Source of the DNA: Gemmatimonadetes bacterium 13_1_20CM_4_69_16
Lineage (GTDB): Bacteria > Gemmatimonadota > Gemmatimonadetes > Gemmatimonadales > GWC2-71-9
DNA length: 64,000 nucleotides
Assembly: GCA_001919865.1 (NCBI GenBank)
Contig: MNIR01000051.1
Span: forward strand, 91,920 to 155,919
Reading direction: 5' to 3'
In this document: one piece after another, positions 21,530-49,275 of the stretch
Layout of the letters: each line of letters opens with the position of its first letter
Numbering within the stretch: the stretch's first letter is position 1
Program-made: the position numbers and the translations under genes
Notes under the pieces: model-generated
What the model was told of the DNA's origin: nothing
The model's database searches: none
The model's input: the letters and a program-made list of their open reading frames with translations, nothing else

Positions 21530-23618
<2,089 letters not shown>

Positions 23619-31253: not shown

Positions 31254-32511
31254 GGTGTGGGCGGTGGTGCGGCGGGAGTTCGTCGAACGGGTCCGCAAGA
31301 AGTCGTTCTGGGTGATGGCGCTGCTCGGCCCCTTGTTCTTCGCGGCCGTCTTCCTGATGCCGCTCCTCATGTCTCGTGGCGGCGGCGTCAAGCGCCTGGC
31401 GCTGGTTGACCGGACCACGACCACGCTCGGCGCCGTCGTCGCGGCGCGGCTCGACTCGACCCAGCGGTTTTTCGTCGTGCGCCGCCTGTCGGGCGGAGCG
31501 AGCGTGGAAGATTCGCTGGCGCGTGAAGTCGGGCTGAAGAGCATCGATGGGTTTCTCGTCCTGTCGGACTCGCTCACCCAGACGGGCGTCGCGCAATACC
31601 GGGCCTCCAACGTTTCGTCGCTCGATGATATCGGGCTGTTGCGGGAGACGCTGGGGCGGCTGGCGGAGCGCGCGCGTTTGGAGCGCGCCGGCGTCGATCC
31701 GACCATGGTGGCTCGGGCCCAGATCCGGGTGTCGCTCGACACCAAGAAGATCACCGGCGGACGCACGACCGAGGAGAGCGCTGGCCAGTCGTTCTCGCTC
31801 GCGTATTTCATGATGCTGATCCTCTACATCTCGCTGTTGCTGTACGGCGTGCAGGTCATGGGTTCGGTGATCGAAGAGAAGACGTCGCGCGTCATCGAGG
31901 TCCTCGTGAGCTCCCTCAAGCCGTTCCAGCTGCTGCTCGGCAAGCTGCTCGGCGTCGGCGCGGTCTCGCTGGTGCAGTTTGCGATTTGGGGCATGTCGGG
32001 CCGACTGCTGCTTGGCCAGCGGGCAGCGCTGGTGAGCCGAATGGGGGGTGTCGACCCGGAGGTCGGCCAGGTCTTCCAGGTTCCTCATGTGTCCGGCGCG
32101 ACGGCTCTCGTTTTCATAGCGTTCTTCCTGGGCGGCTTCTTCCTGTACTCCGCGATGTTCGCCGCCGTCGCCGCCACCTGCTCCACCGAGCAGGAGGCGC
32201 GCCAGAGCCAGGTGCCGGTCACGGTCCTGATCATGATCGCGTTCTTCGGCTCCTTCGCCACGCTCGCCAACCCGGAGTCGCGGCTCGCCGTCACGCTGTC
32301 GCTCGTCCCGTTCACCTCGCCGATCGCGACTCCGGCGCGGTGGGCGGCCGGCAATCTCTCGGCCCTGGACGTGATCGCGTCGCTCGCGTTGCTGCTGGCG
32401 GGGACCCTCGTGGTCACGTGGATTGCTGCGAGGATCTATCGCGTCGGAATCCTTATGACGGGGAAGCGGCCGAACGCCAGAGAGCTGTTGAGGTGGATCA
32501 GGACTGCCTAG
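31246..32511 (+). CDS. ABC-2 type transporter permease (NatB-like)
   Basis: 421 aa. N-terminal TM, a large extracytoplasmic loop, then a 5-6 TM bundle. Overlaps the ATPase gene by 8 nt. Confidence 0.8.
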   Translation: MRRVWAVVRREFVERVRKKSFWVMALLGPLFFAAVFLMPLLMSRGGGVKRLALVDRTTTTLGAVVAARLDSTQRFFVVRRLSGGASVEDSLAREVGLKSIDGFLVLSDSLTQTGVAQYRASNVSSLDDIGLLRETLGRLAERARLERAGVDPTMVARAQIRVSLDTKKITGGRTTEESAGQSFSLAYFMMLILYISLLLYGVQVMGSVIEEKTSRVIEVLVSSLKPFQLLLGKLLGVGAVSLVQFAIWGMSGRLLLGQRAALVSRMGGVDPEVGQVFQVPHVSGATALVFIAFFLGGFFLYSAMFAAVAATCSTEQEARQSQVPVTVLIMIAFFGSFATLANPESRLAVTLSLVPFTSPIATPARWAAGNLSALDVIASLALLLAGTLVVTWIAARIYRVGILMTGKRPNARELLRWIRTA

Positions 32512-32512
32512 G

Positions 32513-33048
32513 CAAGGCAAGAGCTAGACGCACAGACGCACTGCGGTAAGCAGAGACGGCGAGTAAGCGGGGTACGACCTGCGCCAGAATGATGCCGCAC
32601 GCTGTCCCTCAATTGGCCATCTTCGTAGCGTGCCAATCCACCACACCCTCAAGGCGTGGCAACACGCGCAGCGACTTGCCGTCGAATGCGCCAAAGCCGC
32701 CAACCGGTTCCCGGACTTCGAGCAGCAAGCGCTTGCGGACCAGCTGCGACGAGCCTGCTACAGCATCCCGCTGAACATCGCAGAAGGCACGACCCGGAAG
32801 GGGACTCGGGACTATCGCAAGTTCCTTGATACGGCGTGGGGCTCTCTTGCCGAGGTCCAGACAGCGCTCGCCATCGCGCGGGACGTAGGCTATCTCCAGC
32901 TCCCCGAATTTGCACGGCTGGAGGCGCTGGCAACGGAGACGAGCAAGACTTTGTTCGGGCTCCTTAGAAAGATCAGTCAGGCTTCCGATCGGCCCAAATC
33001 CCACTGACTGTTCGGTGCGGTGCGCCTGCGCGTCTAGCCTTTGCCTTG
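32513..33048 (+). repeat. Inverted-repeat cassette (about 40-nt arms) enclosing the four-helix-bundle gene. Same repeat family as 47879-47980.
   Basis: Core arms 32523-32553 and 33008-33038 are complementary at 23/31 positions, plus 4 G-U on the + strand. The outer extension 32513-32521 / 33040-33048 adds 8 Watson-Crick and 1 G-U pairs. The left core is 27/31 identical to 47882-47912. Confidence 0.7.
32630..33007 (+). CDS. Four-helix-bundle protein (23S rRNA intervening-sequence protein / Avd-like family)
   Basis: 125 aa, GTG start. 'LKAWQHAQRLAVECAKAANRFPDFEQQALADQLRRACYSIPLNIAEGTTRKGTRDYRKFLDTAWGSLAEVQTALAIARDVGYL' matches the family hallmark (...lr.qi.RaavSi.sNIAEG..r.s..df..fl.iA.GSl.El.t.l.la...). 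Confidence 0.88.
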   Translation: MPIHHTLKAWQHAQRLAVECAKAANRFPDFEQQALADQLRRACYSIPLNIAEGTTRKGTRDYRKFLDTAWGSLAEVQTALAIARDVGYLQLPEFARLEALATETSKTLFGLLRKISQASDRPKSH

Positions 33049-33070
33049 GGTGTTCACTAAGCTTTTTAGA

Positions 33071-45521: not shown

Positions 45522-46994
45522 GTGCGTCGTCACACGGCGGTGGGTCTCTGCCTGCTGCTTTTCGCGGGCTGCGTGCGGCATCCCCCGCCTTCACTCATCG
45601 GTCCATCGTCCCAGCCTGTCTTTCTTCCCCCGCAGTTGTTCCGCGAGACCGTCCCCAAGGGCGACGCGGAGTGGCGGGCCGTGGGGCAGGAGGCGGCGAC
45701 GCTGCTGTCGCAGTACATCGCCATCAACACGACGAACCCCCCCGGAAACGAGATCAACGCGGCGCGCTGGCTCAAGACAGTGCTCGCGCGGGAAGGGATC
45801 GAGGCGCAGCTGTTCGAGCCCAGGCCCGGCAAGGCAAACCTGTACGCCCGGGTGAGAGGGGACGGGACCGCGCGGCCGCTGATCTTTCTCAACCACATGG
45901 ACGTGGTGCTCGCCAGTCCCGAGTACTGGAAGGTCGACCCGTTCGGCGGTGTGGTGAAAGACGGCTACGTCTGGGGGCGCGGCGCGCTCGACATGAAGGG
46001 TGAGGCGATCGCCCAGCTGATGACGCTGATCATCCTGAAGCGCGCCGCGGTGCCGCTCAAGCGCGACATCATCTTCCTCGCGACATCGGACGAGGAGATC
46101 GGCGCGGGCGTGGGGGCGGGGTGGTTTGTGGAGACGCACGCCGACCTGATCCGGGACGCCGAGTTCCTGATCACCGAAGGCGGCACGATCCGCGCCGACG
46201 CGCGCGGGCGGATCGAGTACTATGGAATCGGTACCACCGAGAAGTCACCGTTCTGGCTCGACGTGACGGCGAGGGGGACGTCGGGGCACGGCTCGCGTCC
46301 CACACCGGACAACCCGGTCCACCGGCTGACGCGCGCCCTGTACCGAATTGCCAACTGGCAGACGCCCCTCGCGGTGACGCCGACGGTGGAGCGCTACTTC
46401 CGTGACCTGTCGACGATCGAATCCGACGCCACCCGCCGGGCTTGGCTCGCGGATGTGCGCGCGGCACTGCGCGATTCGGGCGCGATCCGTGGGCTCACGG
46501 CGGACCTCACTTACAATGCGCTGCTGCGCAATACCATCTCGATCACGGGCCTGAAGGGGAGCGACAAGACGAATGTCATCCCTCCGGTCGCGTCGGCGGC
46601 GCTCGACGTTCGGCTCCTGCCAGGGCAGGAGCCGGCGGCGTTCCTCACCGAGCTGGTGCGGGTGGTGAACGACAGCGCCGTCACCATCACACCCCAAGGG
46701 CCGAGCTGGCCGGCGACCGAGAGCTCGACCGAGACGGAGCTGTTTCGGGCGATCGCGTCCGCGGCGCACGCGCGCGATCCCGGCGCGCTCGTCACGACGC
46801 CGCCGCTCACCGGTTTCACGGACAGCCACTATTTCCGTCGTCTCGGGATCGTGAGCTACGGCCTATCGCCGTTCCCTCTCAACCAGGCCGAGTCGCGTGG
46901 CGTGCACGGCAACGACGAGCGAGTGAGCCTCGACGACCTGACCTTCGGTGTCCATTTCATGTACGACGCCGTGTCACACGTCGTGGCGAGGTGA
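45522..46994 (+). CDS. M20 family metallopeptidase (ArgE/DapE/CPG2-like), secreted or lipoprotein
   Basis: 490 aa. 'LLLFAGC' lipobox-like, 'FLNHMDVV', 'GRGALDMKG', 'SDEEIG'. Confidence 0.82.
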   Translation: MRRHTAVGLCLLLFAGCVRHPPPSLIGPSSQPVFLPPQLFRETVPKGDAEWRAVGQEAATLLSQYIAINTTNPPGNEINAARWLKTVLAREGIEAQLFEPRPGKANLYARVRGDGTARPLIFLNHMDVVLASPEYWKVDPFGGVVKDGYVWGRGALDMKGEAIAQLMTLIILKRAAVPLKRDIIFLATSDEEIGAGVGAGWFVETHADLIRDAEFLITEGGTIRADARGRIEYYGIGTTEKSPFWLDVTARGTSGHGSRPTPDNPVHRLTRALYRIANWQTPLAVTPTVERYFRDLSTIESDATRRAWLADVRAALRDSGAIRGLTADLTYNALLRNTISITGLKGSDKTNVIPPVASAALDVRLLPGQEPAAFLTELVRVVNDSAVTITPQGPSWPATESSTETELFRAIASAAHARDPGALVTTPPLTGFTDSHYFRRLGIVSYGLSPFPLNQAESRGVHGNDERVSLDDLTFGVHFMYDAVSHVVAR

Positions 46995-47875
46995 TCGGGC
47001 CCCTCTTCCATCCCCGGCGTTACCCGCCCAGCCGCGACAGGCGCGCGCCTACCTTCGAGCGCGCGGTAAAAGTGCCGATCGGCTGGGTGGTGGAGCACCT
47101 GTGCGCGCCGCTGGCGCGTTGGAATGGGCGGTTGCTCCTGACGCCCGAGATCGGCGTCCCGATCGCCGGCCTGCTGCCGGAGCTGGACGGCTACCGCATC
47201 GCGCTCGCCACGGATCTCCACCGCGGCCCGGTGGTGCCGGCCTCCTGGCTGGCGCGTGTGGCGGACCGCATCAGCGAGCTCGTGCCTGACCTCGTCGCGC
47301 TCGGTGGGGATTTCGTGAGCCACGTGAAGCGTGACCTCGACGGACTCGAGTCCGTGCTGTCTCGGTTCCGCGCGCGCGACGGTGTGGTGGCTGTGCTCGG
47401 CAATCACGACCACTGGGTGGGGCCGGACGCGGTCAGTGCCGTGCTCGAGCGCGCCAGCGTTACGTTACTCACCAACCGCCACGTCCTCGTGCGGCGCGGC
47501 GCGGCTACCCTGGCCGTCGCCGGAGTGGATGACTTCACCCACGGCGCGATCCGTCCCGACGAGGCGCTCGCCGGTGTCGCGCCCGAGACCCCCCGCGTCC
47601 TGCTCTCTCATAATCCCGATCTCATCGAGTACCTCCCCGCCGGCCTGCGGGTGGACGTGATGCTGTCGGGGCACACGCACAACGGTCAGCTCCACCTGCC
47701 GTTGCTGGGCCCGCTCCTGGTGCCGTCGCAGTTCGGGGGGCGCTACATGCACGGCCTCAAGCGGGTCGGCGAGACGTGGCTGTACGTGTCGGCGGGGGTG
47801 GGGACCGCCGCCATCCCGATGAGATGGGGAAATCCACCCGAGTTACCAGTGATCAGGTTGGAGCGAACAGGATAA
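46991..47875 (+). CDS. Metallophosphoesterase
   Basis: GTG at 46991 (GTGA overlap) within track ORF 46442..47875. 'ATDLHRGP', 'LGGDFVSH', 'GNHDHW', 'SGHTHNGQ'. Confidence 0.85.
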   Translation: MIGPLFHPRRYPPSRDRRAPTFERAVKVPIGWVVEHLCAPLARWNGRLLLTPEIGVPIAGLLPELDGYRIALATDLHRGPVVPASWLARVADRISELVPDLVALGGDFVSHVKRDLDGLESVLSRFRARDGVVAVLGNHDHWVGPDAVSAVLERASVTLLTNRHVLVRRGAATLAVAGVDDFTHGAIRPDEALAGVAPETPRVLLSHNPDLIEYLPAGLRVDVMLSGHTHNGQLHLPLLGPLLVPSQFGGRYMHGLKRVGETWLYVSAGVGTAAIPMRWGNPPELPVIRLERTG

Positions 47876-47878
47876 GCC

Positions 47879-47980
47879 GCAGCTAGACGCGCAGACGCAC
47901 AGCGGTGAACAGTTCGAGTGAGCGGGCCCTTCCTGTTCACTACCACTGTTCACCGCTGTGCGTCTGTGCGTTTAGTCTGC
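47879..47980 (+). repeat. Long perfect hairpin: ORF-less member of the repeat family seen at 32513-33048
   Basis: Arms 47882-47912 and 47946-47976 pair at 31/31 positions on the + strand (28 Watson-Crick, 3 G-U). Three more bp follow after a 1-nt bulge. 33-nt loop. The hairpin starts 4 nt after the upstream stop codon. Confidence 0.85.
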
Positions 47981-48010
47981 CTGTCCTGAAACCGCATTCC
48001 TGCTCCCTAC

Positions 48011-48279
48011 CTACTTCAGGGACACCACGAACCTCACCGTCACGCACTCCGCCGTCTGCGGCGACACGCTACAGAACGAGTCGTGCGGCAACAGGCGCTT
48101 GACGCCCAGCACTTCCGCTTCGGCGATGCCGGGCACGTCGCGGTAGGTGATCTCGAGACTCGTGCCGTCGATGACCCGATAGTGCACCGGCCGGCCGATC
48201 AAGCGGTGGTGGGGATCGATCTTGGCGAGCCCGTCCGCCAGGCAACGCTGGATTTGGTCGATCTCCTGGGTCTCTCGAC

Positions 48280-48283
<4 letters not shown>
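48011..48283 (-). CDS. Hypothetical small protein (90 aa)
   Basis: Clean ORF whose ATG overlaps the queG stop (4-nt overlap). No recognisable motif. Confidence 0.5.

Positions 48284-49247
<964 letters not shown>

Positions 49248-49275
<28 letters not shown>

Follow-up and report, generated by a model that had tools for sequence, protein, structure and literature searches.

The locus and its features

The window, that is, the whole 64-kb stretch of DNA that was analysed, contains a metallophosphoesterase gene and a small ORF; the two converge, as a sequence-only reading of this DNA had noted of the genes around its hairpin. At their junction lies a palindromic element of ~122 nt that carries no ORF. 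Its extent (47868-47989) was set by the nhmmer envelope of the family profile described below and by a conserved outer arm of 15 nt. A relative that does carry an ORF, hereafter the cassette, lies in the same window. The features are as follows.

32509..33052, + strand: ORF-bearing relative (the cassette); left arm ~32509-32553, right arm ~33008-33052, with the outer arm, CTAG, octamers and CAG.GG..A.CAG on both sides
32630..33007, + strand: PF05635 "23S rRNA intervening-sequence protein" / four-helix-bundle gene, 125 aa (Pfam E = 2.7e-30)
46991..47875, + strand: metallophosphoesterase gene (Pfam PF00149, gene call, orthologs); its last codons and stop lie in the left outer arm
47868..47989, no strand assigned: whole ORF-less palindromic element (nhmmer envelope, 15-nt outer arm, MFE fold)
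47868..47882, + strand: left outer arm CAGGATAAGCCGCAG, containing the metallophosphoesterase stop TAA (47873-47875); family consensus (C)AGGAc.gGCAAc.. just 5' of CTAG
47883..47913, + strand: left core arm, with CTAG, two GACGCRCA octamers and CAGCGGTGAACAG
47917..47941, + strand: inner 10-bp stem with a 5-nt loop (GAGTGAGCGG / CCTGTTCACT); its 5' half is like the cassette leader motif
47945..47975, + strand: right core arm, with terminal TTAG versus CTAG in the family consensus
47976..47989, + strand: right outer arm TCTGCCTGTCCTGA (sequence, fold, family alignment, nhmmer envelope)
48011..48283, - strand: small conserved convergent ORF (gene call; conserved synteny)
48280..49275, - strand: queG, after the small ORF (conserved synteny)

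Direct reading of positions 47500-48400 reproduced the pairing noticed earlier. Each of the 31 positions in the arm 47882-47912 has a partner in the arm 47946-47976; 28 of these pairs are Watson-Crick and three are G:T (G47882:T47976, G47886:T47972 and G47891:T47967), the left arm always holding the G. The left arm reads GCTAGACGCGCAGACGCACAGCGGTGAACAG. One of the G:U pairs originated from a C>T change at 47972 in the right core arm. In the RNAfold model the main stem comprises 35 bp (47879-47913 with 47945-47979), an inner stem of 10 bp (47917-47926 with 47932-47941) adds two further G:U pairs, again with the G on the left, and an outer stem reaches out to ~47870 and 47986. The fold of the whole element has a total stem of ~50 bp. 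Both strands were folded, as had been proposed: the + strand RNA reached a minimum free energy (MFE) of -88.5 kcal/mol (z = -14.8) and the - strand RNA -71.1 kcal/mol (z = -8.5), and neither value was matched by any of 200 shuffles (0/200 for each strand).

Since the envelope starts at 47868, the stop codon TAA (47873-47875) lies inside the element. The element had been thought to start 2-4 nt past a stop codon, which does not hold for its longer extent. No T-run follows the stem in this copy, the downstream sequence being UUUAGUCUGCCUG, and a terminator scan returned a single weak internal match within the hairpin (47912-47927); direct reading and scan thus agree with the earlier view that this is not a canonical terminator, lacking a U-tract. 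The arm motif occurred four times in the window, versus 0.14 matches expected. Two of these form the hairpin and two flank the ORF at 32523-33038.

A scan of the window against Rfam at gathering thresholds gave no match to the element, and an E-value scan gave only plant miRNA-precursor noise (32.5 bits versus a threshold of 96). With nothing relevant in either scan, a known RNA family was rejected. The sole Rfam family in the window is a TPP riboswitch (RF00059) at 22842-22942 on the - strand, with 68.9 bits versus a gathering threshold of 54.3.

A palindromic repeat family of Gemmatimonadales

The hairpin at 47868-47989 is one copy of a palindromic repeat family specific to Gemmatimonadales. 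Species-representative genomes were scanned with CTARACGCRCAGRCGCAC, which yielded at least 119 loci. Among the 119 matches listed, ~106 belonged to Gemmatimonadales/Gemmatimonadota; the ~13 from other phyla were isolated chance 18-mers without a hairpin. Arm pairing identified at least 67 complete short hairpins, with a spacing of 74-130 nt, and a few pairs at ~490-500 nt. Family members are palindromic and ~95-170 nt long, and the MFE of every copy fell between -55 and -115 kcal/mol. Two family loci were found in the 64-kb window with the nhmmer profile, and the density is about one copy per 30-60 kb (extra copies in the fetched loci, ~1 per 60 kb). Densities in the loci and in the window suggest several dozen copies per genome. 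The census of the motif that had been called for therefore returned a large family, at 100 loci or more, rather than a two-copy oddity.

From the outside inward, a member has the outer arm AGGAC.GGCAA.. followed by CTAG, then GACGCACA octamers whose number differs from copy to copy (two to five), CAGCGGTGAACAG, and a variable inner stem-loop. Between the octamers and the inner stem-loop, CAG[C/G]GG[T/A]GAACAG pairs with CTGTTC[A/T]CC[G/C]CTG. When 67 short copies were anchored on CTAG, conservation covered 15 nt on either side, including (C)AGGAc.gGCAAc.. and CTAG, and the sequence further out was random.

Several arrangements depart from the simple hairpin. In five species (L007, L012, L029, L030 and L056) an orthologous locus has a solo arm, with CTAG and three to five GACGCRCA octamers and no partner arm, between a stop codon and the start of the next gene. 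Tandem extra copies of the 3' arm, with a period of 22-24 nt (GTGCGTCTGTGCGTCTAG plus TCTTTT), were seen in L081 (6115-6274), L033 (6856-6996) and L067 (4019-4137) and give each 5' arm several alternative partners. Locus L082 (311-2499) contains four family members in 2.5 kb, one of them directly after a second sigma-70-type gene. In L004 (~230-390) and L035 (~510-620) the copies adjoin what appears, judged by reading, to be the end of a tRNA gene (GCTCTACCAATTGAGCTACGGACC...).

No family copies were found in viral contigs. Four 18-mer matches in low-GC phages were at chance level and all lacked a hairpin, and a phage origin was rejected on these grounds.

A relative that carries a PF05635 gene

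The arms of the cassette pair across ~490 nt and enclose a gene for a protein of 125 aa, whose closest solved relative is PDB 2GSC (E = 2.9e-17). Hairpin and cassette have in common the outer arm, CTAG, the GACGCACA octamers and the CAGCGGTGAACAG / CTGTTCACCGCTG block. As stated in the sequence-only reading, 27 of 31 positions are identical between the left arm of the hairpin and that of the cassette (32523-32553). The likeness of the start of the loop to the interior of the cassette was also borne out: the inner 5' stem of the hairpin (CGAGTGAGCGGG) matches the conserved cassette leader GCGAGTAAAC.GGGG. Across diverse cassettes the leader, GCGAGTAAAC.GGGGTAC, is conserved along with the arms, and the inner stem of short copies resembles both the leader and the leader hairpin. 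With termini, octamers, block and leader shared, the hairpin is an ORF-less relative of the four-helix-bundle cassette, as had been proposed, and by its sequence the short form seems to consist of the arms and the leader hairpin, with the ORF missing.

Over the time scale sampled, the gene-bearing form is immobile. Its PF05635 gene lies between an ABC-2 permease and mnmG in 80 of 80 metagenome loci (83-100% identity) and in four genomes, and no transposase was found in this form, PF05635 being its only gene and the ABC-2 permease/mnmG locus its fixed site. Among the metagenome relatives the PF05635 protein is 84-95% identical, the permease ~50-60% and MnmG ~80%, and the gene has a dN/dS of ~0.04 at a pS of 0.73. 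In the relatives examined the gene is always flanked by arms, and in the most distant cassettes both sides carry a matching arm variant. In a search for distant PF05635 homologs, the best 120 relatives listed were all at least 78% identical.

In four distant cassettes (L185, L191, L196 and L203), TATCCTCCT stands directly before the PF05635 start (locus position 2001), in the ~15 nt upstream. It resembles the anti-Shine-Dalgarno sequence and not a ribosome-binding site, and is absent from the cassette of the window.

Insertion at gene ends

Loci found through homologs of the metallophosphoesterase have the syntenic order M20 peptidase, metallophosphoesterase, small ORF (-), queG (-). The site is filled in the window and in L054 and L216 (~92% protein identity), and L121 (73% protein identity) has a decayed copy with the left arm partly deleted. 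The hairpin is absent from L122 and L123, where the convergent stops are separated by 2 nt or have a 4-nt overlap. Orthologous sites are filled or empty between species at ~70% protein identity. Because relatives without the element have abutting or overlapping convergent stops, the element is an insertion, and it was inserted exactly at the junction of two convergent genes.

The element carries stop codons of its own, namely T|AGGA at its outer end, TAG within CTAG and TGA within GGTGAACAG, so gene ends tolerate its insertion. In the closest relatives (L216 1501-2418, which is P0001; P0002; and L054) the metallophosphoesterase ORF reads into the element without meeting a stop. P0001 and P0002 end in a tail encoded by the hairpin, ...AGRADAQR, which runs to the TGA of GGTGAACAG. 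Gene callers extend ORFs into the arms and create tails of the type ...RADAQR, a point for annotation.

The census also covered position relative to stop codons, as had been suggested. The stop of the upstream gene is found between -4 and +17 nt from CTAG in most copies, and often it is the TAG of CTAG itself. Background 3' spacers average 40-50 nt, so that any insertion between genes must touch stop codons. Thirty copies had a tandem gene context, five a convergent and three a divergent one; the deficit of divergent contexts (3/38 copies versus 35% of intergenic DNA) was significant by length (p = 1e-4) and not by count. The biggest orthologous sets follow rpsA (S1), groEL, a sigma-70 gene (rpoD) and dnaN, and further sets are located behind upp, map and a CBS-domain gene. 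With no more than a few percent of genes carrying it, the element is not the general signal for 3' ends in these genomes.

Target-site duplications of 3 nt or longer were not detected across the boundaries of the copies. The longest direct k-mer shared across boundaries averaged 4.0, versus 3.84 ± 0.13 in shuffled pairings, with which a 2-nt duplication is still compatible. We also considered whether the outer palindrome is a separate element hit by a CTAG-targeting insertion, and rejected this, the bare palindrome occurring twice in 915 kb. In L120 (~2875-2900), an ortholog with another downstream gene (S9 peptidase), GGAACGGCACTAGTTGCCGGTC stands at the stop codon. It resembles two outer arms joined at a single CTAG and may be an excision footprint or a chance match.

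Age, constraint and compensatory change

By flank similarity, 66 copies collapsed to 34 orthologous loci, so that the bulk of the matches represent orthologs from separate species. The majority of copies are old and have been passed on vertically. Across the nine species of the sigma-gene set, four-fold sites were 58% identical, which is near saturation, and the 20-nt arms were 85-100% identical. Seven population variants of the species of the window differed by 10-16 SNPs per 3.9 kb, with no SNP or indel in 47868-47989.

Three orthologous sets were aligned without structural information and used for pairing tests. The fraction of paired cells was compared with that after sliding the partner, and the number of pairs changed on both sides with that in 500 shuffles.

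A2, rpsA set: paired cells 92.9% versus 39-56% slid; double-changed pairs 6 versus 4.0 ± 1.3 in shuffles, reached by 68/500
A3, groEL set: paired cells 94.6% versus 35-54% slid; double-changed pairs 8 versus 3.2 ± 1.2 in shuffles, reached by 0/500
A4, sigma-70 set: paired cells 89.6% versus 29-53% slid; double-changed pairs 7 versus 3.4 ± 1.2 in shuffles, reached by 2/500

Pairing together with double changes within ortholog sets shows that the pairing of the inner stem is maintained by compensatory change. Covariation, for which an analysis had been recommended, exceeded the shuffles in the groEL and sigma-70 sets and less clearly in the rpsA set, and in a single MAFFT alignment of 45 copies, in which the arms are invariant and the variable helices misaligned, it was not above shuffles. 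The element has been retained over the long term with frozen arms and compensatory change in its inner stem. The compensatory changes are strand-symmetric, and a hairpin or cruciform at the DNA level fits them equally.

On the 3' side of the inner stem in the A4 alignment, the flank CTTTGCTGTTC is invariant in seven species and its 5' counterpart varies. Within GG[T]GAACAG / CTGTTC[T]CC, copies in tandem contexts had U.U on the sense strand 10 times versus A.A three times. The U.U excess and the invariant 3' flank hint at an intrinsic polarity, among copies that are not independent.

Strand asymmetry of G:U pairs

The G:U asymmetry of the hairpin had been taken as a sign of selection on an RNA transcribed from the + strand. 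We measured it by aligning the left half of each copy to the reverse complement of its right half, a strand-neutral procedure. In the copy of the window, transition mismatches were split six (G:U on the + strand) to one (G:U on the - strand), with a two-sided binomial p of ~0.12, and its ortholog in a sister species (L054) was split 5:4. The local + strand has a slight excess of G and T, so mutation bias pushes in the same direction as the G:U excess. When copies in tandem contexts were pooled, 115 sense and 72 antisense cases were counted (p = 0.002); at the level of loci the split was 6:3 with two ties. The outcome also depended on the strand from which the structure was derived. In the three ortholog sets, sense-strand G:U versus A.C stood at 24:6, 16:5 and 22:11 with sense-derived structures and at 12:4, 12:10 and 12:20 with antisense-derived ones. 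Since the bias was significant only when non-independent copies were pooled, we rejected it as proof of selection at the RNA level. The G:U asymmetry is suggestive at best and cannot carry that conclusion.

Comparison with known elements

One close parallel is the intervening sequence (IVS) of 23S rRNA. Such IVSs and the S23p / PF05635 ORFs have been known for ~30 years (PMC4990558). The Coxiella 23S IVS has a terminal stem of 28 bp, a variable number of tandem heptamers and a PF05635-family ORF, and is excised by RNase III (PMC4990558). The Gemmatimonadales element resembles the IVSs of Coxiella burnetii (helix 45) and Leptospira in its long terminal inverted repeats, with stems of ~28 bp or more, in the existence of both ORF-bearing (PF05635 / S23p) and ORF-less forms, in the variable tandem repeats of the stem (GACAGAT heptamers in Coxiella versus GACGCACA octamers here) and in its vertical maintenance. 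The long complementary termini of an IVS are present as the 35-bp main stem with the inner and outer stems, and the PF05635 ORF is carried by the cassette (32630-33007) and not by the hairpin. However, the element is found between protein-coding genes, scattered over dozens of mRNA 3' ends, and its PF05635 gene is under strong purifying selection, while the Coxiella ORF is decaying. No rRNA was detected in the window with Rfam gathering thresholds or in the 119 loci with rRNA probes. A location in rRNA (helix 9, 25 or 45) was accordingly rejected, the neighbours being the metallophosphoesterase and the small ORF/queG. Cleavage of the stem by RNase III, as in the rRNA IVSs (PMC4990558), is predicted for the Gemmatimonadales element.

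Neisseria CREE and enterobacterial ERIC/RU elements are likewise intergenic, ~100-150 nt long and bounded by inverted ends, and they are co-transcribed with their neighbours. Once folded, RNA of Correia/ERIC-type elements can be a target for binding or cleavage by RNase III and can change mRNA levels (PMC2649163). The Gemmatimonadales element differs in having no sequence similarity to them, in that neither a duplication of TA or another target nor an IS partner was found for it, in its mostly orthologous copies across species, which are not strain-variable, and in a gene-bearing relative that encodes PF05635. REP/REPIN-RAYT systems, with a single-copy, vertically inherited gene and long-term persistence in lineages (PMC3116915; bioRxiv 10.1101/2021.07.10.451892), are similar in combining dozens of hairpin-forming repeats at gene ends with one single-copy gene flanked by the same repeats. 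REP units are imperfect palindromes of 20-40 nt with a GTAG or CGTC tag (PMC3733652), whereas the arms here are ~45 nt, contain direct octamers, are not self-complementary and do not themselves form short GTAG- or CGTC-tagged palindromes; moreover, the flanked gene encodes a four-helix bundle (PF05635) and not a HUH/Y1 tyrosine transposase. Rho-independent terminators and 3' stabiliser hairpins share a stable GC-rich hairpin that directly follows a stop codon, but the stem of ~50 bp, the internal branch and the lack of a U-tract in this copy set the element apart from terminators.

Two further classes were considered and rejected. The arms do not fit the core motifs of integron attC sites on reading of the sequence, and no integrase gene is among the neighbours identified in the window. 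A diversity-generating retroelement or retron was rejected for want of a reverse transcriptase among these neighbours (ABC-2 permease, mnmG, M20 peptidase, metallophosphoesterase and queG).

Proposed role and alternative explanations

Long, near-perfect double-stranded RNA helices are a standard substrate of RNase III, and RNase III excises rRNA IVSs. The architecture of the element looks like that of an IVS placed in mRNA 3' regions rather than in rRNA. We tentatively favour, at somewhat short of an even chance, the reading that it is an IVS-like RNA hairpin of 3' ends, whose long double-stranded RNA is cut by RNase III or blocks exonucleases and insulates. The element would be co-transcribed with the upstream gene or, between convergent genes, from both sides, and the transcript would fold into ~50 bp of near-perfect double-stranded RNA. 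This helix would be a substrate of RNase III, and cleavage, or the stable stem by itself, would define and protect the 3' end of the upstream mRNA. The hairpin may also insulate that mRNA from downstream or antisense transcription. Transcription, processing by RNase III and an effect on mRNA are put forward by analogy with the rRNA IVSs (PMC4990558) and with the Correia elements (PMC2649163). RNase III has little sequence specificity, and pairing as such needs no fixed arm sequence, so the model leaves the frozen arms unexplained. Their conservation points to a partner that recognises sequence, the obvious candidate being the PF05635 protein.

The arms could accordingly be recognition sites in the first place, of a sequence-specific factor that would most plausibly be the PF05635 protein binding the CTAG-(GACGCACA)n duplex in RNA or DNA. 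It would protect, process or propagate the duplex, and the single vertically inherited gene together with its dozens of hairpins would be a partnership with a population structure like that of RAYT and REPINs. What recommends this account is that the sequence of the arms, beyond their pairing, is frozen among species whose synonymous sites are saturated, that the direct octamer repeats look like a binding array, that the always arm-flanked gene evolves at a dN/dS of ~0.04 and is conserved at 84-95% identity versus ~55% for the permease and ~80% for MnmG, and that the arm variants of distant cassettes change together on both sides. The Avd proteins of diversity-generating retroelements, which are homologous to PF05635, bind nucleic acid and reverse transcriptase, and published papers reportedly link PF05635 with these retroelements. 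A four-helix bundle is not, however, expected to hold a catalytic motif, and as a full explanation we regard recognition by such a factor as distinctly unlikely. We are a little less sceptical, though still doubtful, about the proposal, drawn from the sequences, that PF05635 protein and hairpins make up one system, in which the product would recognise the CTAG-(GACGCACA)n duplex in a RAYT/REPIN-like partnership without a transposase. A bidirectional, factor-independent terminator that stops RNA polymerase arriving from either convergent gene appears highly unlikely. The element does sit at gene 3' ends, convergent pairs included, and its palindromic form would let it work on either strand; CTTTTGC or TCTTTGC directly follows the CTAG-closed stem in many copies, and 20 kb of the window gave no convincing canonical terminators at gene ends. 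Against these points, the copy at 47868-47989 has no U-tract (UUUAGUCUGCCUG), GCAAAAG pairs with the T-rich outer arm, a stem of 50 bp with an inner branch is far beyond known terminator geometry, and the element marks the ends of only a few percent of genes.

An unlikely alternative, to which we nevertheless give more weight than to the others, is a purely selfish, non-autonomous mobile DNA of the MITE or REPIN kind, transposed by an enzyme whose gene lies elsewhere, with the hairpin as its terminal inverted repeats and no function for the host. The earlier description of the element as MITE-like is right in part. It is small and non-coding, with terminal inverted repeats and many dispersed copies, and species differ in whether an orthologous site is filled or empty. 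Decayed (L121), half and solo-arm copies (L007/L012/L029/L030/L056), tandem extra arms, a variable number of octamers and local clusters, such as the four copies within 2.5 kb in L082, would all be expected of such an element, and its own stop codons would make insertions at gene ends tolerable. But neither a transposase parent with the same ends nor any other relative with a transposase was found, the gene-bearing form being a four-helix bundle at one locus (80/80), and there was no target-site duplication of 3 nt or more and no copy in viral contigs. Within the species, the seven population variants have no SNP or indel in the element, and inheritance is mostly vertical (66 copies at 34 orthologous loci). 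Arms that outlast saturated four-fold sites and inner stems that compensate argue against neutral junk, which should decay.

Significance

The literature searched yielded no report of PF05635 cassettes that lie outside rRNA and have ORF-less derivatives, nor of any REP- or MITE-type repeat family in Gemmatimonadota. Within that literature, the ~120-base palindromic gene-end family of soil Gemmatimonadales is previously undescribed. It presents the IVS architecture outside rRNA, with the ORF-bearing form as a fixed, constrained gene and the ORF-less form multiplied at dozens of gene ends. Two questions, the role of the PF05635 protein and the origin of IVSs, thus become testable in one system. 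If the PF05635 protein does recognise the arms, this would give the large and functionally blank family of "23S rRNA IVS proteins" its first concrete ligand, and the known IVSs would be a special case, resident in rRNA, within a broader class of hairpin elements associated with proteins.
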